Virus record (IMG/VR): IMGVR_UViG_3300045988_154156
Direction: 5' to 3' (one strand)
Length of the DNA stretch: 64,000 nucleotides
Source: a virus
Positions 2,311 through 50,611 of the stretch are shown in pieces. The first letter of the stretch is position 1. Each line of letters begins with the position of its first letter. The notes beneath the pieces were generated by a model. The model did no database searches. It was not told where the DNA came from and saw nothing but the letters and a program-made list of their open reading frames with translations. The translations under genes were made by a program, and so were the position numbers.

Positions 2311-3261
2311 ATGAATATTAGTTTAACCACTAATTGTAATAATCATTGCCCTTATTGTTTTTAGCAAAATATTCATAATTTAAATATGGAAATATCCATC
2401 GAAAATTATGAAAAAATTTTAAAATGGGGACAGGATTATGATAAAGAATATATCCAATTATTGGGTGGAGAACCTACTTTATATTTAAAATTGCCTGATA
2501 TATTTGAAATAACAAATAATTATAAAAAGAAAATAAGTATAATTACTAATTTATTAGGATATAAAGATAATATTGAATTAATAACTCATTGTAATAATAT
2601 AGGTAGTATATTAATTAATACTACTTATGATGATAATAAAAAAGAATTATTTTTATCTAATATGGAACTTATAAAAAATACTTCCTTTTATAAAAGTTTT
2701 AGTATTACTTTAATGCCTAATAAAATTAATAATATAAAATATATTAACCGAATACGAGAATTATCTTTATTATTTCCAATGATTACGGAATTAAGAATTG
2801 GTTTAATGACTCCTTGCCCTGACTAGGATGATTTTTTTATTTATAATTATTCAGAGGATATAATTTTTTTAATAAAAGAATTACAGGGATCTAATTTAAA
2901 TTATTTAACTTTTGATTGTAGTATTAATTTATGTGAATTAGATTTTTCATTATTTAAATTATTAGCTGAAAATTAGATAAATAATTTATTTATTAATTTA
3001 ATAAATGTCACTTGTCCTGGGCCATGTATAGATATTATGCCTAATTTAGATATAAAATATTGTTATTCTATGTCTAAATTTTTTCCAACTAAAAATATTA
3101 CAGATTTTAATAATTATACTGAAGCTTATAATTATTATAATTCTTTAAATAAAAAATATTAGATTAAAAATAATAAATGCTTAAATTGCATTAATTTCCC
3201 AATATTATGTTAGCCTTGTCCTAGTATAGATTAGGCATTATTAAAAATAGAAAAGAGATGA
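2311..3261 (+). CDS. Radical SAM enzyme with C-terminal Cys-rich SPASM/twitch-like domain (about 316 aa, about 6 in-frame TAG)
   Basis: N-terminal CNNHCPYC (CxxxCxxC) motif, then LLGGEPTL. C-terminal Cys clusters (CSINLCE…CPGPC…CLNCINFPILCQPC). Single frame with all interruptions TAG and a TGA terminator. Confidence 0.75.
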
Positions 3262-6616: not shown

Positions 6617-8356
6617 GTGGAATATCATTTAAAGGCTCCAATGATTCCAGGTTATAGTCCTATAGAACAAATTCTTAATAATAGAGGTATTAAAAATATC
6701 TATCATTATTTACATACTACAGATGATGATATTCTTGATCCTTCTACTATTATGAATATAAAAAATGGGGCCATAATGCTGGTTTCACATATAAATAATA
6801 ATGATAAAATTTTAATATAGATAGACAGCGATTGTGATGGTTATACATCCGCCGCTGCTTTAATTAATTATTTACATAAAATCTGTCCTGCTTTTGTAGA
6901 AAATAATATTTCATATCGAGTACATGAAGGCAAATAGCATGGGATATTATTAGATAGTATTGGCAATGATATTAAATTGGTTATTGCTCCAGATTCTTCG
7001 TCAAATGATTATGAAGAACATAAATAGCTTAAAGAACATGGAATTGATGTATTAGTAATAGATCATCATGAAGCAGATAAAGTTTCTCAGTATGCTTGTA
7101 TAATTAATAATTAGTTATGTAACTATCCAACTAAATCATTATCTGGTGTCGGCATGGTTTATAAATTTTGTAGTTATTTAGATAAATTAATGAATGTAAC
7201 ATATGCTGATGACTTATTAGATTTAGTTGCTCTTGGCTTAATTGCTGATATGATGGATTTACGAGATTATGAAACTAAACGGCTTATTGATAAAGGTTTA
7301 AATCATATTATTAATCCATTTATTAGAACGATGATTAATAGAGATGCTTTTCATTTTTCGAATGGTATTACCCCAATTGATGTAGCATTTTATATTGCTC
7401 CTTTAGTAAATGCTGTTACTCGAGTAGGCACATAGGAAGAAAAATTAGTATTATTTGAATCTATGTTAGATTTTAAAGGATATGAATTAATTCCTTCAAC
7501 TAAGCGTGGTTGTTCTGGTAATGCCGAGCCTAGAGTAGAGTAGGCTTGTAGAAATTGTACTAATATTAAAAATAGATAGACTAGAACTAGAGATGCTGCT
7601 TTAGAGACTATTGAGAATTTAATTACTGCTAATAATTTATTAGAAAATAAATTATTAGTTATTTAGTTAGATAATATTTCTGCAGATCGCAATTTAACAG
7701 GATTAATTGCTAATTAGTTAATGAGTAAATATTAGCGTCCAGTTTTAATTTTAAATAAAGTATTTCATAATGATGGAACAATTACTTGGGAAGGGTCTGG
7801 ACGTGGTTATGATAAATCTAGTTTGAAAGACTTTAGATAGTTCTGTCAAGATACTGGATTGGTTATGTATGCGGAAGGCCATCCTAATGCTTTTGGATGC
7901 GGTATTACTGATGATAAAATTTAGTTATTTATTACAATTACAAATGAAGTACTAAAAAATGTTTAGTTTATTCCATCTTATACAGTTGATTTTATTTATC
8001 ATAATGTTGATGTAAAGCCTGAAGACATTACAGATATTGCTACATTAAAAAATCTTTGGGGACAAGGAATAGAAGAAGCGTTAATTGCTTTGGAAGATGT
8101 TCCTGTGACTGCTGAAAATTTAAATTTAATGGCAAAAGATAAAAATCCTACATTAAAAATTACTTTACCAAATAAAATTAGTATTATTAAATTTAAATCT
8201 TCAGAAGAAGAATTTGAAAAATTATATACTGAACATGGTAAAGTATCTATTAATATTATTGGGCGTTGTTCTGTTAATGAATGGAACGGAATTATAACTC
8301 CTTAGATTTTAGTAGAGGATTATGAAATTGTCAGTAGGAGTGAATATTATTTTTAA
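6617..8356 (+). CDS. RecJ-like DHH-family ssDNA exonuclease / phosphoesterase (about 579 codons, about 14 in-frame TAG)
   Basis: DHH motifs DSDCDGYTSAAAL and GIDVLVIDHHE, plus a GGH-like region (EGHPNAFGCGI). GTG start after GAAAGGA. Every interrupting stop is TAG. Confidence 0.7.
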
Positions 8357-8738: not shown

Positions 8739-9020
8739 ATGAAAGAATTAAAAAAAGTAGTAATGAAAGCACAACAATTTGATAATATATCAGAAAATTT
8801 ACAAAATATAGAAAAACATACAAAAGGTTTTATGTATGATAGCCTTTGTTATAGATATCAACTTGCTAGGTATAAAGCCTGCGAAGCAGATGCTATGGAT
8901 TTAATTATAACAAAAGGTTTATCTAAAAGAGAAGCTGAAGCTAAAGCTAGAAATTTATATGAAAGAGATTGTCTACGATTTTATCAAATTCTTGATGAAG
9001 CAATTGGAGAACATGATTAA
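8739..9020 (+). CDS. Small hypothetical protein (93 aa); paralogue of the next gene with an identical C-terminal tail …ILDEAIGEHD
   Basis: ORF with RBS. C-terminal 10 aa nearly identical to gene 9020-9346. Stop/start overlap TAATG. Confidence 0.55.
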   Translation: MKELKKVVMKAQQFDNISENLQNIEKHTKGFMYDSLCYRYQLARYKACEADAMDLIITKGLSKREAEAKARNLYERDCLRFYQILDEAIGEHD

Positions 9021-9346
9021 TGAAAAAGAAATATTATCGTAAGCGAGATAATAATTTTTATTTAGATAAAACTAAAGAAGAAATTTTATCAGAAATTGAT
9101 TATGATAATCCAAAAACTTTTTTACCGTATCTTGAAATACTAGATTATCCATATCTTGAATATGAATGGAATCATTGTCTTCAACTTGGAAGAGGGCGCA
9201 ATTTAAATAATATTTTTGGTAGGTATATTGCACTAATGCGTCTAAAAGGATATAAAAGTTTTTCATATCAAGATAGCGATTATTTAAATAATGCGAGAAA
9301 GAAAAATGATGAAATTTTAGATGAAGTGATTGGAGAGCATGATTAA
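9020..9346 (+). CDS. Small hypothetical protein (108 aa), paralogue with tail …ILDEVIGEHD
   Basis: ORF in the same arrangement as the previous gene (ATGATTAATG junctions at both ends). Confidence 0.55.
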   Translation: MKKKYYRKRDNNFYLDKTKEEILSEIDYDNPKTFLPYLEILDYPYLEYEWNHCLQLGRGRNLNNIFGRYIALMRLKGYKSFSYQDSDYLNNARKKNDEILDEVIGEHD

Positions 9347-9564
9347 TGTGGATTTATTGGAAAGAGCAATGTAATTATTGCTCTAATTATAAAGGTTGTA
9401 CTTATTATGATAAAGTCCAAGAATTAATTTCTCAACTAGATAGTATAGATAGATACGCAGTAGGTGTTTATGGGACATTAAAATGGACTTGTGATTATTT
9501 TAAAATTGATAAGGATAAATATTATAAATTAAATCCTGGAGAGAACTGTAATGATTCTAACTGA
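9346..9564 (+). CDS. Small Cys-rich hypothetical protein (72 aa)
   Basis: ORF overlapping both neighbours; CNYCSNYKGC motif. Confidence 0.45.
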   Translation: MWIYWKEQCNYCSNYKGCTYYDKVQELISQLDSIDRYAVGVYGTLKWTCDYFKIDKDKYYKLNPGENCNDSN

Positions 9565-16232: not shown

Positions 16233-18476
16233 ATGATTTATATTATAAAGCGCAATGGCACAATTGTTTTATTTGATAAAAATAAAATTATTAATGCTAT
16301 TAATAAAGCATTTATTGAAGTTGATGGATAGCTTTATGAAAATGATACCGCTCAAGATATCGCTAATGATATTGAACGTCAAGTAAATTATTTCCCTGAT
16401 GGTAGTGTAGGGGTAGAAGATATCCAAGATTGGATTGAAGATTATTTGATGCGCTCTGAGCGTCGTGATGTAGCTCGTGCATATATTAGATATAGATATA
16501 AAAAAGAAGTTGCTCGTGAAAAGAAAGATGATTTTATTCAAGCCATTAGGAAAAAGCTTGATGGTAAAGATATTAAAAATCAAAATGCTAACGTTGATGA
16601 AGCATCATTTGGCGGACGTATTGGCGAAGCCAGCAGTGTAGTAACTAAACAATTAGCTTTAGATTATATCTTATCACCAATGGCAAGAGATAATCATTTA
16701 AATAATATGATTTATACTCATGATCTTGATGCTTATTATGTTGGTTCTCATAATTGTTTAAGTATTCCTTTTGATGATTTACTTGCTAATGGATTTAATA
16801 CTCGCTAGACAGATGTACGTCCAGCAGGTTCAGTAAATACAGCTTTTCAATTAGTGGCTGTTATTTTCCAAATTCAAAGTCTTTCTCAATTCGGCGGCGT
16901 TAGTGCCACTCATCTTGATTGGACTATGGTTCCTTATGTAAGAAAAAGTTTTTATAAACATTGGAAAGACGGAATGCGTTATATTGAAAAAGTTGATTCA
17001 TGTGGGAAAGCATCTAATCCAGAAAATTTATCTATTGCTGATAATGGATATTTAGAATTTGAAAAAGCATATAAATATGCTATGGATATGACTATTAAAG
17101 AAGTCCATCAAGCAGTAGAAGGTATGTATCATAATCTTAATACTTTACAATCTCGTTCAGGAAATTAGTTGCCATTTACCTCTATTAATTATGGTACTTG
17201 TACTCTTCCAGAAGGAAGAATGATTACTAAAGCACTTTTGGATGTATCTATTGAAGGTATTGGCAAATTACATAAAACTTCTATTTTCCCTTGCGGAATT
17301 TTTCAATGTATGAAGGGAGTTAACCGTGAACCAGGTGACCCAAATTACGATTTGTTTAAACTCGCATTATAGTCCACCGCCCAAAGATTATATCCCAACT
17401 ACGCGAATGTTGATTGGTCAGGGAATGCTGGATATGATATCAATGACCCACGCACCTATTTTTCTACAATGGGATGTAGAACAGCCAATGGATACGATAT
17501 TAACGGTTTCGGTCAGCTAAAAGATGGTCGTGGTAATATTTGCCCAGTAACTATTATTATGCCCACTTTAGCTATGGAAGCTAAAGAAATGGCAGATCAT
17601 CAATATTTTGAAGATGGTTTAGATGCTCAAAAAGAACAATATCGTTGCAGATGTTTTATGAATTTATTAGATCAAAAAATTAATGAAGCAAGAATTCAAT
17701 TGATGGAACGTTTTGACTGGATTTGCTCACAAGACCCAAAATCTGCAAAATTTATGTATGAAAATAATTTAATGGCAGGTTATATTCCAGAAGAAGGAAT
17801 TAGAAGTGCCCTTAAGCATGGTACATTAGCTATAGGATAGATTGGTTTAGCTGAAACTCTTCAAATTCTTATTGGATGCGATCATACTGATCCAAGAGGA
17901 ATGAAAATGGCAAAAAAGATTGAAGAATTATTTAAACAACGTTGTGCTGAATTTAAAGAAGAATATAAACTTAATTTTGGAGTATATTATACGCCAGCTG
18001 AAAATTTATGTTATACAGCAATGCAAAAATTCAAAGAAAAATACGGCATCATACCTAATGTTTCTGATAAAGAATTTTTCACTAATAGTATCCATGTTCC
18101 CGTATGGAAGAAAATTTCTCCCTTTGACAAAATTGATATTGAAAGTCAGTTAACAGGTTATTCTTCTGCTGGATGTATTACCTATGTAGAATTAGATTCT
18201 ACTGTAAAGCATAATATTGATGCTCTTGAACAAATTGTTAATTATGCTATGGATAAAGATATCCCTTATTTTGCAGTAAATGTGCCTAATGATACTTGCC
18301 TTAACTGCGGATATTGTGATGAATTTAATGATAAATGTCCTGAATGCGGTAGTACCAATATTCAATAGCTACGTCGTGTGACTGGTTATTTAACTGGAAA
18401 CTACAAAACTGCTTTTAACTATGGTAAACAAAAAGAAGTAGAAGCACGAGTAAAACATACGGGGTAGATGGAATGA
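16233..18476 (+). CDS. nrdD: Anaerobic ribonucleoside-triphosphate reductase NrdD (about 747 codons, about 7 in-frame TAG)
   Basis: ATP-cone at the N-terminus. C-terminal Zn-ribbon CLNCGYC…CPECG followed by the glycine-radical motif RRVTGYL. Five ORF fragments in one frame, all joined by TAG. RBS GGAGGA. Confidence 0.9.
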
Positions 18477-22243: not shown

Positions 22244-22687
22244 ATGGCCACTTTTATTGCTGAACATTTTATTGAAATTATTTTTGGACTTATTTCTGCT
22301 GGACTATTAGCATTTTGTAAATCAATTCATGGTAAAATGAAAAAGTATCAAGCAATGGTTGAAGAGCAGAAAAATGATGACCTAGATGAAAAAATTGAAT
22401 CCCATATTGAGCCTATTAAAGAAGAAATAGAAGATTTGCGAAAATATATTAGAGAAGCAAAGACTATTGAAGAAAGTCATATGGAATTAATTATTGCATC
22501 TTACCGTTTTAGACTAACTCAATTGTGTCGTGCTTATTTAAAAAAGGGATATATGACTTCTAATGAGTATGAACAATTAACAGAGTTTTATAAAGTTTAT
22601 CATGGGTTAGGCGGCAATGGGCAAGCCAAAACTTATTATGATAAAACAATAAAATTACCAATTCAGCATGAAGAGCTTCCAAAATAA
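22244..22687 (+). CDS. Hypothetical protein with an N-terminal transmembrane helix (147 aa, no TAG)
   Basis: Intact ORF; RBS AAAGGAGG; hydrophobic FIEIIFGLISAGLLAF segment. Confidence 0.6.
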   Translation: MATFIAEHFIEIIFGLISAGLLAFCKSIHGKMKKYQAMVEEQKNDDLDEKIESHIEPIKEEIEDLRKYIREAKTIEESHMELIIASYRFRLTQLCRAYLKKGYMTSNEYEQLTEFYKVYHGLGGNGQAKTYYDKTIKLPIQHEELPK

Positions 22688-22691
22688 AAAT

Positions 22692-22731
22692 AAGGGATAG
22701 AACAATTAAGTTCTATCCCTTATTTTTTTAT
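22692..22731. terminator. Bidirectional intrinsic terminator at the convergent strand switch (AAGGGATAGAAC-loop-GTTCTATCCCTT, T-runs on both sides)
   Basis: 12-bp stem with a T-run downstream on both strands. Lies between the last + gene (22687) and the end of the - gene (22720). Confidence 0.75.
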
Positions 22732-23031
22732 CTATTTAAATATTTCATCAGTCTATTGGATTATATCAAATCCATAATCACTAATAATATTAGCAACTAA
22801 TTCCTACTAATCTAAATTTAATTTAATATTATAGCTAAACATAAAAGCATGAGTTATTTCATGACATAAAACATGATATAATTTATCTTCTTCTAATCTT
22901 CTATTTATATATATTGTGCTAGTCTTATCATCACAAGATCCTAATGCTTTTACCCCATTATGTTTAGATAATTTAGAAAAATTGGAGGGTACTAAAAGCA
23001 CCCTCCAATTTCTTCCATTTATATTAAACAT
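22720..23031 (-). CDS. ImmA/IrrE-like HExxH metallopeptidase-domain protein (about 103 aa)
   Basis: HEITHAFMF (HExxH) motif; 5 TAG clustered at the C-terminus; TAA stop inside the terminator stem. Confidence 0.5.
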
Positions 23032-23506
23032 TCATCTAACCAATTTTAGTTGCTAAAGCCGAAATTTTTCTTTCAAGGTAAGACCTTTCATCATTTGAAG
23101 CATTTTCAATCATTTCAACTATATCAGAGCTTAAATCTGAAATATAATTATCTAACTCCTTAAGCTGAATAGCCTTATCTTTATGATTTTGTTGAGCTTC
23201 TAAATACGCTTTACGGGCAGAGGGACTACGACCTATTTTGTCATCATCCCAAGCTGTTTCCATATGTGTATCAGTCATATATTTACTTGTTTTATTTTTA
23301 GGATATTTTTCAGTATAATATAAGATTTCTTCTTCAGAAGCTTTTTCCATTGCTTCAGTAATTGAACAATAATACTTTGCTTCTTCTAAATCTTTTATCA
23401 TATCAATGACTTCACCTAATTCATGAGCATCAACACAGGCTAAATTAGACATTTGGCATTCGACTTGCGCCATTAATTGTTCTCTTACACTTTCATAATC
23501 GCACAT
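23024..23506 (-). CDS. Hypothetical acidic protein (about 160 aa, no internal TAG)
   Basis: ORF with RBS AAGGGGGTAAA. Confidence 0.55.
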
Positions 23507-23520
23507 TCTAATTTACCCCC

Positions 23521-23946
23521 TTAAGCTACTCGTTCAATAATTAAATTAGCATTTTGTAAAGAGATAGCCTAAGTACCAGTGTTTTCAACACTAACCTAAG
23601 TGCAGCAACCTCCAATTACATCTAAGAATAAAGAACAAGAAATATTATTAAATTGTTCTACTGCGGTAGGAGTAGAAATCATAGTTGTTGTTTCTACCGG
23701 TTCCCCATTTATGGCAACTGCTAAAGAAATTGCTCCAGGAGTTCCACCAGTAGGAACTGCTATATTACCACCAAATAATATACGGAATCGAGCTTTTCGC
23801 TGATTCGCAGAAGTGATACCACGTAATGTTACTAAGCCACTTCCTTCACGATGTATCATAGAACAATTGCCAGCAACAGCGGTATTAGTAAATACTACAT
23901 TACTATTGGCATTAACCGTTTGTAAAGCATTTGCTGTTATTTCCAT
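23521..23946 (-). CDS. BclA-C / C1q-TNF-like jelly-roll domain protein (about 141 aa)
   Basis: Gly/Thr-rich beta-strand pattern (…GSGLVTLRG…RFRILFGGNIAVPTGGTPGAISLAVAINGEPV…) resembling exosporium BclA C-terminal domains. 2 TAG. Confidence 0.4.
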
Positions 23947-23967
23947 TTAGAAAACCTCTTTTCTTTA

Positions 23968-24825
23968 TTAAGCAGTATACTAACATCCACATCCAGTATA
24001 ATTAGTTCCCACATAAGGATTTTGGACAACATAGGCTGGAATAGGAGCTTTATTACTTAATTGTTCTACTAAATAAGCATTCTATAAATTTTGAGAAATT
24101 TGGCCCTTAAGAGTAGCATTTTCAGCAGTAAGAGTTTCAATCTTATCTTTGACAAGGAAATCAAGGATAGAGCGCATACTAGCATTAGTATTATCAATAA
24201 TATCTCTTACTCCTTCATTAACTGCTTGACGGTTTTGGCAAGCTTGACTTGCTAAATTATAATTTAAATCAGCAAAGCTTGATGTAATAAGATTTCTATT
24301 CTCGCAGCAGCACTGAGCATTCGTTGCTGCCATATTATTTAATTGCTGAATGATATTATTAGTATTCTACATACCAGCGACAGTATCAGCATTAATAGCC
24401 TAAGTAATGCCGAAGGTATTTTGCATATTGTTAATGCCCATATTACAAATATCTTGTGATAAAGAACGAGCATTGCTATTAATAGTCTCAGTAACATTAC
24501 CAAAACCAGAAAGTAAATTATTATTTACATTAGCGAAACCATTACATAAGCCAGTCTGTAAAGAATTAATTCCAGATTTAAGATCGCTTATATCAAATCC
24601 ATAAGTTAATTCTTCTCTCGTAGTAGTGCCTTGATAACCAGTATTACCATTATTACCCCAGCCGTTATTACCCCAGCCATTAAAGCAGAATAAGAATAGG
24701 ATAATAATCCACCAAGCGCCGTCGCCCCACATACCATTATCGCCATTGCGATAACCGTTACCAGAAGCAGCAGCAATATCAGATAAAGAATATTGCTGAG
24801 TTGGAAAACCACCATAATTAAACAT
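23968..24825 (-). CDS. Membrane protein with a Gly/Asn/Trp-rich region and Cys cluster (QCCCENRNL…GCGC), about 285 aa
   Basis: ORFs 24400-24843 and 24082-24333 are in the same frame joined by TAG. TM helix WWIIILFLFCF. RBS AAAGGGG before MFNYGG. Confidence 0.5.
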
Positions 24826-24860
24826 ACAAATAACCCCTTTCAAAAGTTATAATATTTTAT

Positions 24861-25106
24861 TTAAATCCCTAATTGAGATTTAAATTTCGCAAATTCAGTA
24901 TCAAAATTCATTCCTTTTGATTCAAAAAAATTCCTCGCAAACTTTTCAATGTCCGCGGTTTGGCCCCCGCGTGCCATTTTTATCAGATTATCTCCCATAG
25001 GCGTTCCGCCCATATTTTTTTCCAGAAGAGACATCATCAAAGTTTGAGGATTCTAGCCGTTTTTAATCATACCTATTATCTACAATGGATTTATTCCCTA
25101 CATCAT
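24861..25106 (-). CDS. Small hypothetical protein (81 aa, 3 TAG)
   Basis: RBS AAGGAGGT then ATGATG. MMQGINPLQIIGMIKNGQNPQ…KSQLGI*. Confidence 0.45.
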
Positions 25107-25117
25107 TTCTTACCTCC

Positions 25118-25573
25118 TTAAAAGTTAAACTGCGGTTTGCTATCAGTTATTTGCTCTGTCGAAGATTGAGTATTCTATTGTTGTTGTGGATTAATATTAG
25201 CCTAGGCCTATTGTGTTAATTGAGAAAAGGCTTCTTTAATCTATGATAAAGCATTATTAAATTCATTCCGTGTTATAAAATCTACATTATTACCTTGTGA
25301 ATTGCTTGGAAGTTCTTTTAGCTCATACATATTGATTGAAGCAGTTCCATCCATATTAATCTATTTTGTATATATTCTTCTATTGGCATAGTCAGGAAAA
25401 TAGAATACTGAACCATCAAAATCTACACTCATCGCCCGTACTTCATCTAATGAAGAGACTGGTCTAACTCTTGGAGTAGTATTTTGATTTGATGCCGGCA
25501 TAATAGGTTGAGTGTTATAAATTGGCCGATTTATAGCACTAAACTATTGTGGATAACCATAATTATTATTCAT
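25118..25573 (-). CDS. Hypothetical protein (151 aa, about 6 TAG), first gene of a leftward operon
   Basis: RBS GGAGGTAAAAATT then ATG; continuous frame to TAA. Confidence 0.45.
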
Positions 25574-25726
25574 AATTTTTACCTCCGGAGTTTTAAAGTA
25601 GAAGAATTTTATCTTTTTCTTCCATAGATATATAAAATTTAGATTATAAATATCATTAGGAAATACTCACACTTTTTTAAATGGAAATCTCTTCCGCACC
25701 AAAATAAATAAAAATATCGTCATGAA

Positions 25727-25755
25727 TAGACTTTTATAAAAATTTTTGGTATAAT
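25727..25755 (+). promoter_or_regulatory. Candidate promoter (TAGACT-N17-TGgTATAAT) in the divergent intergenic region upstream of the response-regulator gene
   Basis: Extended -10 TGGTATAAT at 25747-25755; weak -35. Confidence 0.4.
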
Positions 25756-25795
25756 TATAAATAGAGAAAGATAAAAATATTAATGAAAGGAGGAG

Positions 25796-26500
25796 ATTAT
25801 CATAGTTTCAATATGTATTTGTGATAGAGATGATTCACATGGATAGTCAATGATTACTATTATTAAAGATTATTTGTTTAAACATAATGTAATGGGAAGT
25901 ATAAATTATTTTAATAATGCTAAAGATTTATTAAGACAACCAATCTATGACGTCTATTTCTTAGATATTTTAATTAGAGATATGAATGGCATTGAGCTTG
26001 GAAAAATATTAAAACAAAAAAATGAAAAATGCGAAATAATTTATATAACTGATTAGCGTAATTATGGACCACAAACCTATGAAGTAAAGGCATTTAATTA
26101 TTTATTAAAACCTATAAATATAGAAGAAATAAATGATACTTTAGATAGATTATTTGAAAAAATTAAAAGTGAATATAGATATTTAAGAACTAAAGATGGG
26201 GAAGAAAGAATTCCACTTAAAGAATTATTATATGCTGATATTATAGGAAGAAATTTAACTTGTCATTTCTATGATGGTGAATTAATTCAAAGTACAACTT
26301 TAAAAAAATCTTTTGAAAAAATGATAGGTCCTTTAAAAGATAATCCAGATTTTGTCTTTGTTGCACCGAGTTTATTAATTAATTTAAATTATATTAGTTC
26401 AATGAACTTAAACTATTTAACTTTTACTACTGGTGAAGTATTATATTTCCCAAAGAGCGCGTATAAATTAATTTGTGAAAGATGGAAGCAATATAGTTAA
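25796..26500 (+). CDS. AgrA/ComE-like response regulator with C-terminal LytTR DNA-binding domain; the conserved N-terminus is encoded upstream of the first ATG (25850)
   Basis: Receiver-like MITIIKDYL…YFLDILIRDMNGIELGKIL aligns with AgrA. LytTR signature IPLKELLYADIIGRNLTCHF…FVFVAPSLLINLNYI. Upstream in-frame ICICDRDDSHG(TAG)SM matches the AgrA N-terminus IFICEDDPKQRENM, directly after RBS AAAGGAGGAG, with no AUG. Confidence 0.65.
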
Positions 26501-26502
26501 AT

Positions 26503-26541
26503 AGAAATAAGGGGAACACTCGATAATTGAGTGTTCCCCAT
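26503..26541. terminator. Bidirectional intrinsic terminator (GGGGAACACTC-loop-GAGTGTTCCCC followed by ATTTTTTT)
   Basis: 11-bp stem with a T-run on the + strand and an A/T-rich tract on the - strand, between the convergent RR gene and the holin gene. Confidence 0.7.
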
Positions 26542-26545
26542 TTTT

Positions 26546-26935
26546 TTATGATTTATTAATATTAACACTTGCTTCTATCTTTTCAGAAATATATTTATCT
26601 AAATCACCATAAATATTAGCAAGATAATCTTTTGCTTCTTGGCTAAGAATTGTTAATACTGCTTGCGTAGTTTGTTCAAATGCTTGCTTTTGAGCTTCTG
26701 CATCAAATTTGCCTTGTTTCTTTAGACTTTCTACATAAGTCTAATTCGTAGCAATAACACAACTATTAATTGTGTCAGTTAGCATTTGAATATATTTATT
26801 TGCTAATGCATTATCATTATTCTTTTGAATTTGATTACTTTTTACATTAATCCATTTAATAATAAAAGTAGTCAATACTCCTAATAATGGAATAATACAT
26901 ACTTGAAAAATTTGAGTTAGTAATTCACTAGTCAT
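26546..26935 (-). CDS. Holin, LL-H family-like (about 129 aa)
   Basis: N-terminal TM (IIPLLGVLTTFII) then …ANKYIQMLTDTINSCVIATN(TAG)TYVESLKKQGKFDAEAQKQAF…AKDYLANIYGDLDKYISEKIEA, matching the LL-H holin signature. RBS GGAGGAAATA. Confidence 0.6.
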
Positions 26936-26948
26936 TATTATTTCCTCC

Positions 26949-28010
26949 TTAAGGTGTTCCATAAATAGTACAAGTCATATCATATCTAGCGCTTGGACTA
27001 TTATTTAATAAAATTAATTCACAAAATTTTTGTGATGAAGTACTTGATTCATAACATCTACCAACAGCATAAATTCTCATTGTTCCTCCTGTTTGAGAAT
27101 AATTTAATAATTCTAAGGTAGATATACCATATAGGGTAGTTCTAGAACTATTTTCACAAACACAATATCCTTCAAAACCTTTTGATTTAATCTGTGCTAA
27201 AGTTACTCCGGAGGGATCCCCTCCTTTAAAAGATAACATATGATATGTTCCAGAGTTATAATCTGTATTAACTTTAATTGCAATAGAATAAATAGTAGAA
27301 GGTAATGCTCCTCCAAATGAAAAATTCAAATATCCTCCGTTACCATTACCTTCATTATAAAAGCTTGATACAGTTCCAGTATATAATTTAGCACTAGATA
27401 AAGTTCCAGTTACTCCAAAAATATTTACTCCTGATTTAATATTACTAGCAATTAAATTGCTGCTTCCAGATACAGTAATATTTCCAGTAGCATAAGAACC
27501 AGAAGCAATAGCAGTCTAAGAACTTGTGCTTGGAGTAATAGTTCTACCATTAACAGAAGGTATTGTTCCTGTTACTTTTACTCCAGAAGCAGAAGTAAAT
27601 GTTTTGCCAGTAAGTACATCGGCGGCAGTTGCATTACCAAAATCTGACTTTGGAAAAACACATCTTGTATGCGCTCCTGCTCTATATAATTTTGGATTAT
27701 TAAAAGGATATTTAACATAATAATATGTTGAATCCTAAGTTCTTAAATAATCAGATAATGAACCAGATTTTTGTTCATATCCTGTTACAATTGGTATTGT
27801 ACCTGTTATTTTTTCACCATTCACATAGGCTGTTTTACCTTGTCCAATATCTTCTGCAATGGCAGTTGCATCTGAAGTATCTATGCCTGTTTCAATATTT
27901 TGTATCAAATTAGGCATATCTTGAGCATTAATTTTATTAGACGTATTAGTTTTTTCTCTAATAGCATCTCCAATTCCTGTTAACAATTCAGGGACTGTAC
28001 TATAACTCAT
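26949..28010 (-). CDS. Tail fibre-like protein with TGTIP repeats (about 353 aa)
   Basis: ORFs 27735-28019 and 26949-27329 share a frame; repeats GEKITGTIPIV and VKVTGTIPSV; RBS GGAGGT. Confidence 0.5.
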
Positions 28011-29743
28011 TATTTCCATTTACCTCCTATCGCTGTAAATAATTCTATTTCTTTCCATTCATTATTTACTCCATAATATAATTTACATTCTTTCCACTCT
28101 TTATCTTTTCCAAAATAAATTTTTTTCTTAAAAACAGGATATAAATAAAGGTTACTCGGTTCGGTTCTAGTATATGTTGTATTAACTTTATAAGTTACTG
28201 TACTACTTCCTTTAGCTGTTGAATATCCTAAAAATTCACAACCTTCTAAATACTATTCATTTGGATAAATAGTAAAAGTTGCTGAAGAATAACAAGCATT
28301 ATTAGTATTAGATGACCATTTAGCATATAGCTAAGTAGCACCATTAGACATAATAAAATTAGTATCTGAAGTTGAATAACTACCTCCTGGAGTAAAATTT
28401 ACTCCACTTCCTGTATTTGTAGTATTCCAACTGGATAAAGTATAAGTAGTTTTAGGTTTATACTAAACATAATTAGTATGCAAAGGAGTAGTATTATCTG
28501 ACTTATATCTAATTATGGAATAGGTTGTTGTTTCCGATCCCCATACTGGTGATTTTGTAATAGAAGAAGATGATGGCATAGTAATAGTCTAAGCAATATT
28601 GTTATAATATGTTAAAGCATTAGCTGTACCACTACCTCCATTAAGATTAAATGATAAAGAAAAATACCAAATTCCATATAAACTTAAAGAATCCTAATCA
28701 GTAGATATCGTAGCTCCTTTAGCATATTTAGGAGTTGTTGCGTTTTTATTAGTACTCCATCCTTTGAATATAAAATTAGTAGGATTGGACCAAGTAGGTG
28801 GAGTCATTGTATTTGCTCCTGTATTTGTATAAGTCCCTAAAAGAGTGCCAGTATTATTATAAAATGACATAGTCCCTTTATAAGGGGTAAATGTTAATGT
28901 ATAAGGAATATAAGTAGATCCACTACCACTAAAAGCTAAATTAAGTGCTACATAATAAGTTCGACTACCTAAGAATTTTTCACTATATTTTACTTCACAG
29001 TCATATGATACGCTAGGATCCTTATCATCATTTTTCTCAGTATCATTATTATCATATACAAAAGATGCATCACGTGATTGCCCTGGAGCTCCTTGACTTG
29101 GTTCAGTTTTAGTAATATAGCCATAGGGATCTGGACTTTTACTTCCAATAGTAGTTGTAAAAGTAAGAGTTCCTCCACAAGGAACTGTTACATTAAAATA
29201 AGATGCTCTATAATAATATACTTGTATAGACCCACTATAACTTGAAGTATTTTCCGTATTTGTTATTCTTCGATCCGCAGAATAATGATAAGGAGCAATC
29301 CAAGAAGTATAAGTATCATTATAATCTCCATAAGGTGTATCATAATAATCTCTATAAGGTGTATCATCATAATCTCTATAAGGTGTATCATCATAATCTC
29401 TATAAGGTGTATCATTATAATCATTATATGAAGCAGGTGGATACTAAATATGGTCCTAATCAATGTCACCACCTATACCGTCCTATACAGAAGCTCCATA
29501 GGTAGTAGTGGTTGAAAGATTACGTCCTGAGAATGTAATAGTAACAGAACCAGAATTAGAATAAAATATTAATCCATTACGCCCACTAGTTAGAGAACCG
29601 CTAGACGCAGTAAAATTCGTAGTAGCACCTTGGTTAATTTTTGGATAAATATATATTTGACCACTAGAACAATTTCGCCATGATGCAAGAATTGTAATTG
29701 AACTTCCACTAGCTGACTATAAAGATACAGAAATTGAAGCCAT
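28010..29743 (-). CDS. Tail/structural protein (about 577 aa) carrying a 24-bp tandem repeat encoding (D-T-P-Y-R-D-Y-D)x3.5
   Basis: Strong RBS AAGGAAGGAGGA; continuous frame; tandem repeat at about 29330-29425; about 12 TAG. Confidence 0.55.
29330..29425 (-). repeat. Tandem 24-bp coding repeat (ATAAGGTGTATCATCATAATCTCT)x3.5 on +, encoding PYRDYDDT units
   Basis: Direct visual repeat; produces the spurious overlapping ORFs 29242-29505 (+) and 29263-29472 (-). Confidence 0.8.
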
Positions 29744-29746
29744 ATA

Positions 29747-30709
29747 TTATCCTCCTTCCTTATTTATAGAACTAAAAGCTAAACACCCGCCCTAACAAGA
29801 TAAATTATTAAATTTTTTACAATTTTTACATTTATCATTTTGTCCGTTAGCTTCTCTTTTAGGATAGATTGTTTTAAATAAAAAATAATTTGAAACTTCA
29901 TTAATATTATCAAACTAATGCAAATCTATTAAACCATAAGCGCCAAAACAACAAGTTGCTTTAAAATCCGGAGTAATATCTATAACTGGTTTACATAAAG
30001 TTTTCCAATGAATTACATTTTTTTTTAAAAAAGCTAAATCATCTTCTTTAAAATAACAAGCAGGTATCATATTACAATCAATGCGCAATTCAATATTATT
30101 TTTATAGGCTAACTAATTTAATTCTAATAATTGTGGGATACCATTATTGTAATATTCATCTTTATCTACTTGACTATATTGGCAAGTAGGAGCAGCATAA
30201 CTAATTCTTAAATTATTTTTTTTATATTTTTTACATAATTCAATTATATAATTAAAATCCTATAAATCTGGGTATATATTAATACCAAAATTAATTTGAT
30301 TTAATAGCTAATTTTTTTCAAAATTATTTAAAGTTTCTATAATACTATTATAATTACTTTCTGACATAGTATTTGGAGCATTCAAATTTATTAAACTAGA
30401 TAAAGCAGAATGATTTTTAAAACTATTTAAATATTTGTCTAAATAAATCCCATTAGAAAAAATAGTAACATTTTTTAAATCATATAATTTATCAAAACAA
30501 ATATCTATATATTCTGCTAGGCAGGGATGTAAAGTAGGTTCTCCTCCTATAATACCAATTCTATTACAAGGAGTCTAATCTAAAAAATCTAATATAGTTA
30601 ATAACTATTCCTTTGTTATAAGCTATTTTTCTTCCTCTGTAATAAATTTATTAGCAAAACAATATGGACACTATAAATTACAATAATTTAAAAATGCAAT
30701 ATTAGGCAT
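29747..30709 (-). CDS. Radical SAM / SPASM-domain protein (about 320 aa)
   Basis: N-terminal CNL(TAG)CPYC (CxxxCxxC) and GIIGGEPTL. C-terminal Cys clusters TCCFGAYG…CKNCKKFNNLSC(TAG)GGCLAF. Overlaps the upstream gene by 8 nt. Confidence 0.7.
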
Positions 30710-31976
30710 TATTTATTTTATCTCCTTCTAATTTTTTTATTTCTTTTAAATTAAAAAAATTATTTTCTATTAAAATTTGCTTTAAAATAGGATTTATATT
30801 ATCATATTTTAAATTAATATTTTTAATTAGATCGTATAAAATATCATATAATTTTTTATTAAAAATGCAATAATCTTCATTGAAAGATAATTTTCCTGTA
30901 GAAAAATATTCTTTTATACATCCACCATAACAAATATCATAATAATCACATTTTCCTTTACAATGTGTTAAAATTATATCATCAATTTTATTAATATAAT
31001 CCTAATAAGTTGGTAAAGATATTAATTCTTCAAAAGAATTAATATCTCTAATATTACAAAAAATATTTTCTTTATTAACATATCCACAATGAGTAATATC
31101 ACCATTAGGTAAAATTACTATCCATTTACCAACACAATAAGTTGTATAGCATTTCCCTCTACGGCCTAATAGACATTTAATACGATTTGTAATTCCTTGA
31201 TCTTCAATAGGATTGTCTGTATCATATATCCAATACCTAAAATATTCTGTAATTAATTCTAAATCTTCTTCATTATCAATATCTATTAGCATATTATTTG
31301 AATTACTATCTAATAATTTTATATCTTTAATAAAATTCCCCTAAAAGCCATGAACATTTAATGTTTTTAAATATTCATAATTTTCAATTAAATCTTTTAA
31401 ATGGGGTTTATCATACACACATATAAAACCTTTATGAGTATTTTTTAAAATAGGTTCCATGGCTAAAGTAGATTGTAGTCCTCTAGTCTCAGTATTATAT
31501 ATACCATTATATGAAAGTCCATATTTTATATGATATTTTTCAAGTAATGGTAATTTATCTTCTAATAAAATTCCATTACTTTGTAAAGAAATAGGAAAAT
31601 TTAAATTATATTTTTGTTTTTGCTCAGATAAATATATTAATAAATCTTCTGGCAATAATAAAGGTTCTCCACCATGCCAAGTAATTTCTCGAATATGAGA
31701 ACCAAATTTAGTAAGAATCTAATCTAATAGTTCTTTAGTTATAATCTAATCTTTATATTCATATCTAATAAACTAATTTTCACAATAAGGACAATTAGCA
31801 TTGCATTCATAAGAAGCATGTAATAAAATTAATACATTATCTATAGTATGAAATGACATATCATCTACTAACTATAAATCATCTAATTTAGATAATAATT
31901 CATTTTTATATTTAACTTTATAGGGCTAAATATGATTATACTTTAACCATAATTTTTTTTCTTCTTCGTATGTCAT
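30702..31976 (-). CDS. Radical SAM / SPASM-domain protein (about 424 aa)
   Basis: CNANCPYC motif and WHGGEPLL. C-terminal CKGKCDYYDICYGGC SPASM-like cluster. ORFs 31341-31655 and 31002-31292 in the same frame, joined by TAG. Confidence 0.7.
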
Positions 31977-31981
31977 AATTT

Positions 31982-32203
31982 TTATCCCTCATATCGAATC
32001 AAAATTTTTCCATTCACAACAGAAGGCATAGATTCAGAAGTTGGAGAAAAAATAAACATATCATTAGTTATAACTTCATTAGCTGATGTACCATTTGTGA
32101 CAGATTTTATTTTAGGGTTAGAGCTATTAATAGCACTTTTAAATAAATCAACACTATTATCATCATCAACATAAATTGCTCTTAATAATTTAGGCTCACT
32201 CAT
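31982..32203 (-). CDS. Small protein (73 aa) immediately upstream of the rSAM pair; candidate precursor or accessory protein
   Basis: Intact ORF; RBS GGAGGT; no TAG. Confidence 0.5.
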   Translation of the reverse strand: MSEPKLLRAIYVDDDNSVDLFKSAINSSNPKIKSVTNGTSANEVITNDMFIFSPTSESMPSVVNGKILIRYEG

Positions 32204-37398: not shown

Positions 37399-37430
37399 AA
37401 AGAATCTCCTTTCAATTTTATTTATATAAC

Positions 37431-37509
37431 AAAAAAAATGGGAGAGGATATACCTCTCCCATTTTATTTATATAACAAAAAAATGGGAGAGGATATACCT
37501 ACCTCTCCC
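37431..37509 (-). terminator. Tandemly duplicated intrinsic terminator (two copies of GGGAGAGG-ATATACC(TA)-CCTCTCCC followed by ATTTTTTT, each preceded by the same GTTATATAAATAAAAT spacer)
   Basis: Two about 40-bp direct repeats, each containing an 8-bp GC stem with a T-run on the - strand, downstream of gene 37609-38229. Confidence 0.7.
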
Positions 37510-37608
37510 ATATAATATATGAAAATTATTAAAATATTAAATTGAGAAAAGTATCTTACCTTTCATAATAACTGAAAAAATAAAATACTTTCTTAATTTA
37601 TTTTGTCC

Positions 37609-49863: not shown

Positions 49864-50547
49864 TCACTCTCCTTTAATATCTTTCCAAGTTAAAGTATTT
49901 TCAAGAGCACTTACACGATTAGTTAAATCAGTAGAAGTCTCTAAGAATGTATTAACTTGACTTATAGTTTCCTCAGATAATGTACCAACAACTTTTTTCC
50001 AAATACCATCAGCTGCTAAAAATCTATCAGCAGGACCCTTAGTTGGCACAGGAACTAAACCGCTAGTACCATCTTCAGTTTCAGTAGCTCCTGTCATTAT
50101 TGTGCCAACAGGAATTGACATCCATGCACCGTTGTCAGTTAGAACTTTTCCTTCAATGCCATTTGGATTAACTGGGATAAGTCCATTTTCAGTACCATTA
50201 AAAACAGGAACATATCTAACAACATTTTCTTTTGTTAAAATTCTATCAACCAATGAACTAATTAAAGTTTCATTATTAGTTAATTGAGTATTAACCCAAC
50301 GAGTACCATTATAAATTAATACATCATCAGTATTTAAATTATTGATAACTATATCAGCTAATTCTGATAGTTTACCAGCAGTATTTAAACCACTACTAAT
50401 TAAACGAGTACCTAAATATAATTTACCTGAATTATCTTCAGCGCTAGTAATAAAATATAAAGTATCTTCATCCTTAATCTTTAAAGAATCATAAGCGACT
50501 TGAGAACCTCTTTGGAATTTAACATATTTTTGGGTAATATCTGGCAA
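49864..50547 (-). CDS. Tail fibre protein paralogue (about 227 aa) with N-terminal KFQRGSQVAYDSL…TLYFIT motif
   Basis: Intact ORF 49864-50556. Likely TTG start 8 nt after GGAG. TGA stop immediately before the next gene's RBS. Confidence 0.55.
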   Translation of the reverse strand: MPDITQKYVKFQRGSQVAYDSLKIKDEDTLYFITSAEDNSGKLYLGTRLISSGLNTAGKLSELADIVINNLNTDDVLIYNGTRWVNTQLTNNETLISSLVDRILTKENVVRYVPVFNGTENGLIPVNPNGIEGKVLTDNGAWMSIPVGTIMTGATETEDGTSGLVPVPTKGPADRFLAADGIWKKVVGTLSEETISQVNTFLETSTDLTNRVSALENTLTWKDIKGE

Positions 50548-50611
50548 TTTAATCACTCCTTTTTCTGTTTCTTCCTTTTATTTATAAAAGTTATCTCAAT
50601 AAATTTATAAA

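Follow-up and report, generated by a model that had tools for sequence, protein, structure and literature searches.

The window analysed here, that is, the whole 64,000-nucleotide stretch of DNA from the IMG/VR virus record IMGVR_UViG_3300045988_154156, carries on its plus strand a gene for a regulator composed of a receiver domain and a LytTR domain, which lies divergent from a six-gene operon on the minus strand (hereafter the cassette). That the phage encodes a regulator of this architecture can be regarded as established. We think it somewhat probable that the protein is an atypical response regulator, made of a pseudo-receiver and a LytTR domain, which would serve as a core transcription factor of the phage, act independently of a kinase and control the divergent cassette. 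An earlier note on this DNA had described the gene as an orphan AgrA-like response regulator through which host quorum signals, relayed by a host kinase, could control lysis or late functions. Its recognition of a phage-encoded receiver and LytTR regulator was borne out, as the gene is real, matches the Response_reg profile and has ComE and AgrA as structural matches; its proposal about signalling was not. The elements of the gene are as follows.

25787 to 25795, plus strand: Shine-Dalgarno sequence AAGGAGGAG, kept in the relatives L001-L004 and L009
25802 to 26500, plus strand: receiver and LytTR regulator gene, 232 codons followed by TAA (26498-26500), with ATA 25802 as the likely start
25844 to 25846, plus strand: first in-frame TAG (codon 15), a sense codon, probably for glutamine (Gln); TAG stands at the same position in the 77% identical relative L009
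26054 to 26056, plus strand: second in-frame TAG (codon 85), within the receiver, right after strand beta4; the Response_reg match spans this TAG

Once TAG is taken as a sense codon, the plus-strand frame from 25787 to 26500, with its two in-frame TAGs, is open throughout. The calls made for this gene under the standard code (fragments of 68 and 59 amino acids (aa)) were dropped because TAG is sense across the window. That is, the standard code leaves the window as a scatter of short open reading frames (ORFs), whereas reading TAG as sense gives long genes on both strands that end in TAA or TGA, and the summed length of ORFs of at least 100 aa doubles from 11,460 to 22,261 aa. In the whole window, 299 of about 20,900 codons are in-frame TAGs (14.3 per 1000). 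The earlier note had singled out a 'TAG-containing operon', but this is no special feature, given that the recoding extends over the whole window and that the regulator, like most genes there, has such codons of its own (two). Gln fits as the meaning of TAG because one TAG of the BclA-like gene in the cassette aligns with a Gln of a phage annotated under the standard code. No tRNA or suppressor tRNA was found within the 64-kb window.

The receiver was recognized by the Pfam Response_reg profile (PF00072) with an E-value of 1.4e-12 and 48.2 bits, well above the cutoff of 30.2, in a match that covers the full profile and crosses both TAGs; the same profile matched 11 of the 12 clade members. The Pfam LytTR profile (PF04397) aligned over positions 5-95 of its 98 positions, although the window protein missed the gathering score (18.8 versus 22.6 bits), and an E-value of at most 0.01 was reached by four of the 12 clade members (best 2.2e-5). 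We therefore rely for this domain on the fold. An AlphaFold model (AF2) was made from P0001, a protein 99% identical to the window protein and lacking strand beta1, and has a predicted local confidence score (pLDDT) of 89.7. In a Foldseek search with this model, full-length ComE (4cbv; E-value 1e-11) ranks first, receiver domains match at a root-mean-square deviation (rmsd) of 2.2-3.4 Å, and the C-terminal half of the model matches the AgrA LytTR domains 4xqj, 4g4k and 3bs1 with target TM scores of 0.74-0.78 and rmsd of 2.4-2.6 Å. The model also matches the B. cereus structure 3d6w, and a profile of the regulator family finds both 3d6w and 4cbv at the sequence level. The predicted structure thus confirms the mostly-beta LytTR fold of the C-terminal domain, so that, of the two profile checks proposed by the earlier note, the one for the receiver came out above threshold whereas the one for LytTR fell short in sequence score and was made good by the fold.

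For the start of the gene, the earlier note had given 25796 and 25850 as alternatives. Three lines of evidence argue for an upstream start. That is, strand beta1 (IVSICIC) precedes the ATG at 25850; L009 has no ATG at this position and keeps the residues I-L-S-I-C-V-C-D-R; and in the 18 codons upstream of ATG 25850 the proportion of synonymous differences (pS, 0.44) exceeds that of nonsynonymous ones (pN, 0.17), as expected under purifying selection. ATG 25850 was therefore rejected as a start and is regarded as an internal codon. The stretch IVSICICDRDD lies directly 3′ of the Shine-Dalgarno sequence and aligns with the ATG-initiated MLSIAIYS start of distant relatives, and ATA 25802 (ATT in L009) is the codon homologous to the relatives' ATG, at 8-9 nt from the Shine-Dalgarno sequence. 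We infer from these alignments that the regulator initiates at a weak non-AUG codon, likely ATA 25802, with ATT 25796 as an alternative. The start codon has thus apparently been swapped from ATG to ATA or ATT within the subclade of the window (ATA at 25802 in the window, ATT at about 9691 in L009), while distant relatives retain ATG. The first TAG lies 3 nt ahead of the internal ATG 25850, and a cell without TAG suppression could make short fragments only.

A canonical receiver possesses an acidic DD pair, an acceptor D, a T or S and a K; receivers lacking at least one of these residues are pseudo-receivers, and an aspartate-less type has also been defined (PMC12632262). The window receiver reads D-R / D / T / K, with the acceptor in the motif YFLDI, the Thr after beta4 and the Lys in a Lys-Pro motif, where the D-R pair is assigned by sequence alignment, the structural model lacking beta1. 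On this alignment the second residue of the DD pair is Arg, and the site departs from that of a canonical phosphorylatable receiver; degenerate sites are found throughout the clade. The metal-binding pair is S-D, S-N, S-T, S-E, S-K, V-K or E-T in other clade members, the Thr/Ser position is Gly in the large L007 subclade, and the acceptor is Asn in P0023. Bacterial-type matches of the same search show the canonical DD...D...T/S...K arrangement. Since at least one catalytic residue is missing in the window protein and across the clade, the phage proteins are, as judged from their aligned residues, pseudo-receivers under the definition of PMC12632262, and the forms with Gly at the acceptor position would be aspartate-less receivers.

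All sister lineages of the window, at 77-96% identity, have Gly as the acceptor (P0004, which comprises 219 sequences, P0005, P0006, P0008, P0009, P0011/L009 and L001), their sites reading D-R / G. The acceptor codon is GAT in the window (25964-25966) and GGT in L001 (about 8169-8171), and the Asp/Gly polymorphism is seen among phages that are 92-99% identical. In a neighbour-joining (NJ) tree, the Asp sequences (the window, P0001-3 and L020) form a terminal clade nested in a ladder of Gly lineages; because of this position, the Asp of the window is best read as a recent GGT-to-GAT reversion and not as a retention. The phospho-acceptor context YFLDI, which the earlier note took to be retained, is thus present in the window, but it appears to have been regained from Gly, and the metal pair that goes with it is D-R and not D-D.

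The genes that lack the acceptor Asp show no sign of decay. The ratio of nonsynonymous to synonymous substitution rates (dN/dS) is 0.17 between L009 and L002, both of which have a Gly acceptor, and 0.18 between the window and L009 (0.07 in the LytTR half and 0.34 in the receiver half); across the regulator comparisons it ranges from 0.17 to 0.22. These ratios indicate that Gly-bearing genes are under purifying selection rather than decaying, and the value between two Gly-bearing genes supports a function that does not need the acceptor Asp.

The genomic context of the regulator is also conserved. Its homologues fall into a tight group of 77-99% identity and a broad one, found on contigs of 100-330 kb, in which identity is about 30-35%. 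Every locus examined has the same gene order, in which dUTPase, RuvC and a gene of 145 aa are followed by the six genes on the opposite strand, a gap of 220-300 nt and the regulator, which points away. The divergence from a six-gene minus-strand operon (25573 to 22720) that the earlier note had reported is thereby confirmed. Past the regulator, some relatives have the holin gene and others (L014 and L017) a tail protein gene. Since the divergent operon is always kept and the holin adjacency is lost in L014 and L017, the regulator is partnered with the six-gene operon and not with the holin. The regulator is a syntenic core gene of a clade of large phages (contigs of 120-330 kb), with gene order kept down to about 30% protein identity, and not accessory cargo. 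The operon and the elements of the intergenic region are listed below.

22720 to 25573, minus strand: divergent six-gene operon, the proposed target, syntenic in all relatives examined
25619 to 25632, minus strand: -10-like block of the operon, TATATCTATGGAAG (TATAGTAATGGAAGGG in relatives), with no recognisable -35 hexamer
25665 to 25678, minus strand: proximal element AAAAAAGTGTGAGT, a candidate operator consisting of an A-tract and TGTGAGT, centred at about -50 of the operon promoter
25691 to 25704, minus strand: degenerate repeat of the proximal element, TTTTGGTGCGGAAG; on the plus strand, 29 bp separate its CAC core from that of the proximal copy
25727 to 25755, plus strand: regulator promoter of the sigma-70/sigmaA type, TAGACT, 17 nt, TGgTATAAT (10 of 12 matches plus the TG in a promoter scan)

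At the place of the regulator promoter, relatives have TTGAyT and TATAAT separated by 17-18 nt. On the side of the operon, TGTGAGT (with at most one mismatch) followed after exactly 32 nt by TATA occurs in 10 of 11 divergent relatives, whereas shuffled sequences give 0.07 on average and never more than 2. Distant relatives have three to four copies of an A/T-tract plus TGTG(A/T) on one strand, spaced by 27-29 bp or multiples thereof and reaching into the regulator promoter. The exact element is present as a single copy in the 64 kb. The possibility that TGTGAGT and the -10 blocks make up a general phage promoter was considered and rejected, as neither is enriched in the window. Small phages that bear the cassette without the regulator (Ceridwen and Dulem virus 33) lack the composite element. 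No direct repeats were detected in the region 25500-25900. The search for LytTR-type direct repeats suggested by the earlier note, that is, for AgrA/ComE-type boxes of 9-bp repeats with a 12-bp spacer, found none in the intergenic region and no enrichment in the window (208 observed versus 199 ± 16 expected); what is present instead is TGTGAGT at a spacing of 27-29 bp.

In the mechanism that we favour, host RNA polymerase would transcribe the regulator from its own consensus sigmaA-type promoter, full-length protein would be made only once TAG is read as sense, and the weak non-AUG start would keep its level low and delayed. The regulator would then bind the conserved direct repeats, each an A-tract plus TGTGAGT, in the 228 nt between the divergent genes and, from the proximal site at a fixed 32 nt upstream of the -10 block without a -35, may activate the cassette (22720-25573). 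It would probably also repress its own transcription in those relatives in which the repeats extend over the regulator promoter. Binding of the protein to the repeats, the sign of the regulation and its timing are candidate steps. A number of points weigh against a kinase-independent regulator acting on the cassette. The window variant, having regained Asp and possessing Thr and Lys, could possibly be phosphorylated, and the D-R pair is read from an alignment. Moreover, the 27-29 bp period of the TGTGAGT repeat is unlike that of published LytTR boxes (9-bp repeats about 21 bp apart, with a spacer of 12-13 bp), the window has only one good and one degenerate copy of it, and the -10 block, which is CATATAGTAATGG in several relatives, could mark the promoter of an alternative sigma factor.

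In a rival reading, which we consider unlikely, a host AgrC-like or LytS-like kinase phosphorylates the regulator, so that host quorum or envelope signals would tune lysis or late genes. The window does have an Asp acceptor in YFLDI, the Thr after beta4 and the Lys-Pro motif, the change from Gly to Asp could be adaptive, and orphan LytTR regulators that depend on Asp exist, as in the case of CdtR, whose Asp61Ala variant is non-functional (PMC6699598). However, the second DD residue, which binds the metal directly (PMC12632262), is Arg in the window, and the sister lineages all have Gly at the acceptor yet are under purifying selection. Furthermore, the NCBIfam AgrA equivalog model (NF046049) gives only 27.6 bits against a cutoff of 400, so that the protein does not qualify as an AgrA orthologue, and the best named NCBIfam models, LytR and BtsR, match the receiver only. 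The degenerate site, the Gly acceptors under selection and the low AgrA score together make a conserved, kinase-driven, Agr-like input unlikely, and the absence of AgrA-type boxes from the intergenic region, with no enrichment in the window, likewise speaks against eavesdropping on host quorum signals. The earlier note was right that no histidine kinase accompanies the gene. A Pfam scan of 20 window proteins revealed no kinase, the other proteins of the window being recognisable as replication or tail proteins; a six-frame translation of the window contained no G1/G2 ATP-lid pattern; and neither HATPase nor HisKA was found among the precomputed Pfam matches of the genes called in nine relatives over 6-10 kb around the regulator. 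An Agr-type system would comprise agrB, agrD, and agrC or a cognate kinase, and no kinase was seen in these 64 kb of a genome of about 200 kb or beside the relatives. As for lysis, the holin gene begins within the gene upstream of it and therefore lacks a separate promoter region, and its adjacency to the regulator is not conserved; control of lysis through the holin thus finds no backing.

It is conceivable, if rather doubtful, that the regulator is functional but that the intergenic elements serve a different factor, for example an alternative sigma factor (of sporulation or phage type) or a second DNA-binding protein of the phage, the targets of the regulator lying elsewhere, i.e. in host genes, at other phage promoters beyond the window, or at its own promoter only, as a repressor. 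In several relatives the -10 block takes the form CATA-N3-TA with an invariant ATGGAAGGG after it, a pattern that differs from a plain sigmaA promoter, and this, together with a repeat period that differs from known LytTR sites, the one or two repeats of the window and the occurrence of the cassette in small phages without the regulator, would fit such a division of labour. Yet the cassette always lies beside the regulator in divergent orientation, even at protein identities of about 30%. Moreover, the 64 kb contain the exact element only once, the composite element is missing where the regulator is missing, and the window yielded no recognisable sigma factor or further DNA-binding protein. 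That the gene is instead the decaying relic of a response regulator captured from bacteria, its in-frame stops, missing ATG and lost Asp being signs of pseudogenisation, seems exceedingly improbable. The standard code does break the frame twice, and no ATG, GTG or TTG precedes beta1. The idea was nevertheless rejected, as it is contradicted by the window-wide use of TAG as sense, with 299 in-frame TAGs and a doubling of ORF length (at least 100 aa), by intact relatives, none of which has a TAA or TGA stop or a frameshift, by selection (dN/dS of 0.17-0.22 overall and 0.07 in the LytTR half, with an N-terminal extension that is itself under purifying selection), and by the confident AlphaFold model. 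A more far-reaching scenario, which we regard as quite unlikely, would extend the kinase-independent regulator into a double-gated timer, transcribed early by the host and fully translated only after the TAG switch, weakly from AUA or AUU, that turns on a cassette of exosporium-like surface proteins (with a BclA-C/ExsF fold, a Cys-rich membrane protein and an NHL blade) remodelling the surface of the host cell or spore, with the Gly-to-Asp reversion reconnecting the pseudo-receiver, in the lineage of the window, to a host phosphodonor. If this were true, the phage population would be polymorphic for hearing or ignoring the host signal.

In the order of transcription, the cassette encodes proteins of 151 aa, 81 aa, 285/291 aa (Cys-rich membrane protein), 141 aa (BclA-C/ExsF fold), 160 aa and 103 aa (HExxH peptidase). 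The genes for which features could be assigned are the following.

25118 to 25573, minus strand: first cassette gene, 151 aa, with one NHL/'Pizza'-like propeller blade
23968 to 24843, minus strand: Cys-rich membrane protein, 285 aa
23521 to 23946, minus strand: BclA-C-like protein, 141 aa, predicted BclA-C/ExsF/TNF-like jelly-roll fold
22720 to 23031, minus strand: ImmA-like HExxH peptidase, with marginal matches to Peptidase_M78 (22.4 versus 22 bits) and DUF6782 (27.4 versus 27 bits)

The ImmA-like peptidase, the BclA-C-like protein and the Cys-rich membrane protein named by the earlier note are therefore all part of the operon, the second on the basis of its fold. That is, the model of the 141-aa protein (pLDDT 87.8) matches F-BclA (9h38), BxpB (8d02) and ExsFA (7r1m) with TM scores of 0.71-0.76. 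This stand-alone protein is very widespread (6919 matches) and far better conserved than its neighbours, since relatives with a regulator of only about 33% identity retain 70-80% in this protein. The 151-aa protein has an N-terminus rich in Q, N and P, and its residues at about 26-68 match a single blade both of the 'Pizza' propellers, which are designed beta-propellers, and of the NHL sensor of PknD; this suggests a propeller built from several chains. The cassette, including the 141-aa protein, is also found in small temperate phages (Butyrivibrio virus Ceridwen and Dulem viruses), directly after the lysis cassette. The defence models of PADLOC gave nothing meaningful on the regulator and the cassette, and NCBIfam models gave no match on the cassette proteins. 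In L009, an HNH gene is inserted within the six-gene cassette.

The regulator and the operon are bounded as follows.

26546 to 26962, minus strand: holin (phrog_13712, E-value 5.9e-35), the last gene of a long minus-strand late operon, convergent with the regulator
26511 to 26539, both strands: bidirectional intrinsic terminator common to the regulator and the convergent holin, with stems of 13 and 11 bp, seven G-C pairs and T-runs on both strands
22686 to 22727, both strands: perfect 18-bp inverted repeat, terminator-like, closing both the six-gene operon and the replication operon that faces it on the plus strand

The holin stands next to the regulator in the window, as the earlier note had stated; it is a neighbour, and its status as a candidate target is unsupported. 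The two strong bidirectional terminators (22686-22727 and 26511-26539) bracket the regulator and the operon and set them apart as a single unit.

The source of the window is a large TAG-recoded gut phage, with Clostridia as the probable host. The G+C content is about 28%, no near-identical DNA was found in catalogued phages, and no Rfam family matched in the window. The polymerase shares 41% identity with its counterparts in phAss-1 and the Enterococcus phages VRE9 and H1 and with SPbeta YorL, and close relatives of the regulator lie on contigs of about 200 kb. A profile scan of a genome collection retrieved a single close match, a 98%-identical regulator on L020 (JALFMW010000253.1), a 12.8-kb phage contig binned with the metagenome-assembled genome (MAG) Clostridium sp. 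SUG825; the remaining matches were ordinary bacterial LytTR regulators at 20-32% identity. The binning of L020 is a weak hint at the host. Another member of the regulator family has the NCBI label Methanobrevibacter sp., which probably reflects mis-binning, and the two are the only hints of this kind.

TAG usage is uneven along the window. The replication core (a single-strand-binding-like gene, an AAA_24 ATPase, DnaB, primase and a 1331-aa polymerase of the PolIII-alpha type) is nearly free of TAG, and some small genes (8739-9564, 22244-22687 and 49864-50556) are almost free of it as well. The counts in the replication core are these.

131 to 1063: no TAG
1220 to 2209: one TAG
DnaB: two TAGs
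Primase: two TAGs
1331-aa polymerase: one TAG

Other features were noted along the window. Two adjacent radical-SAM genes with Cys-rich C-termini lie within 29747-32203 (minus strand) in the tail-fibre region, followed by a TAG-free 73-aa ORF, and a third is found at 2311-3261 (plus strand) in the replication module; the set resembles a peptide-modification arrangement. A putative fibre protein of 577 aa (gene 28010-29743) contains about four copies of the tandem peptide repeat YRDYDDTP, encoded at 29263-29500 (minus strand). Between two tail genes, at 37399-37608, two near-identical hairpin terminator units stand in tandem (TGGGAGAGG...CCTCTCCCA, a T-run, TGTTATATAAATAAAAT). The anaerobic ribonucleotide reductase gene NrdD is split in relatives by homing-endonuclease genes of the HNH, GIY-YIG and LAGLIDADG types (L005 776-3571 and L009 1274-2221), and the copy of the window (16233-18476) is intact.

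Among known systems, AgrA of Staphylococcus and ComE of Streptococcus share the two-domain architecture and the fold of the phage regulator, ComE (4cbv) being its best full-length match, and the alignment of the phage receiver to the AgrA model extends over residues 3-126. The phage protein differs from them in that it is not an orthologue, has no agrB, agrD or agrC partners, and has a degenerate DD pair and, in relatives, a degenerate acceptor. Moreover, it has (A/P)-P-S-L-L-I-N where LytTR domains usually show H-R/N-S-Y/F-hV-N, and the locus has no boxes with a 12-bp spacer.

CdtR of Clostridioides difficile is likewise an orphan LytTR regulator of Clostridia that is encoded beside the operon it controls, in that case a toxin operon. 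CdtR and the binary-toxin locus are also carried on the phage phiSemix9P1. CdtR requires Asp61, as an Asp61Ala change is null (PMC6699598). It is thus an Asp-dependent regulator and accessory cargo, whereas the phage family described here appears to have no need of the Asp and is a syntenic core gene. A further case is the 'two-component response regulator' of the C. difficile phages LIBA2945 and LIBA6276, the LIBA2945 protein being 26% identical over 98% of its length. Its gene lies among anti-repressor genes and shares no synteny with the locus of the window, and because of this different context it looks like an independent acquisition.

With regard to the receiver, the closest parallels are atypical response regulators such as ChxR, HP1043 and BldM/WhiI, with which the phage regulator shares the lack of at least one catalytic residue, the absence of a partner kinase and a concentration of selection on the output domain. 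These proteins have outputs of the OmpR or NarL type. In the phage regulator, by contrast, the output is LytTR and the carrier is a phage genome, and this combination of a pseudo-receiver with a LytTR output is absent from the review of pseudo-receivers (PMC12632262), where neither LytTR nor phages are mentioned and to which the clade would add an example together with a natural Asp/Gly polymorphism at the acceptor. LytTR regulators without a histidine kinase are known from Streptococcus mutans, namely HdrRM and BrsRM (PMC6193735); they differ in that they have no receiver domain and are encoded together with a membrane inhibitor, and no partner of this kind was identified for the phage regulator.

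Finally, phage proteins with a receiver and a LytTR domain have already been catalogued as PHROG 8810, with no function assigned, and the regulator matches this family end to end (3.5e-33). The reading as a kinase-independent regulator of the cassette would be the first functional hypothesis for PHROG 8810, and it provides a concrete regulator, a candidate operator and a proposed target cassette for a large clade of uncultured, TAG-recoded, Clostridia-type phages from gut metagenomes. Quorum-sensing look-alikes in phages are often read as eavesdroppers; here, going by the comparative data, the signalling chemistry appears to have been lost and the gene kept as the phage's own regulator.

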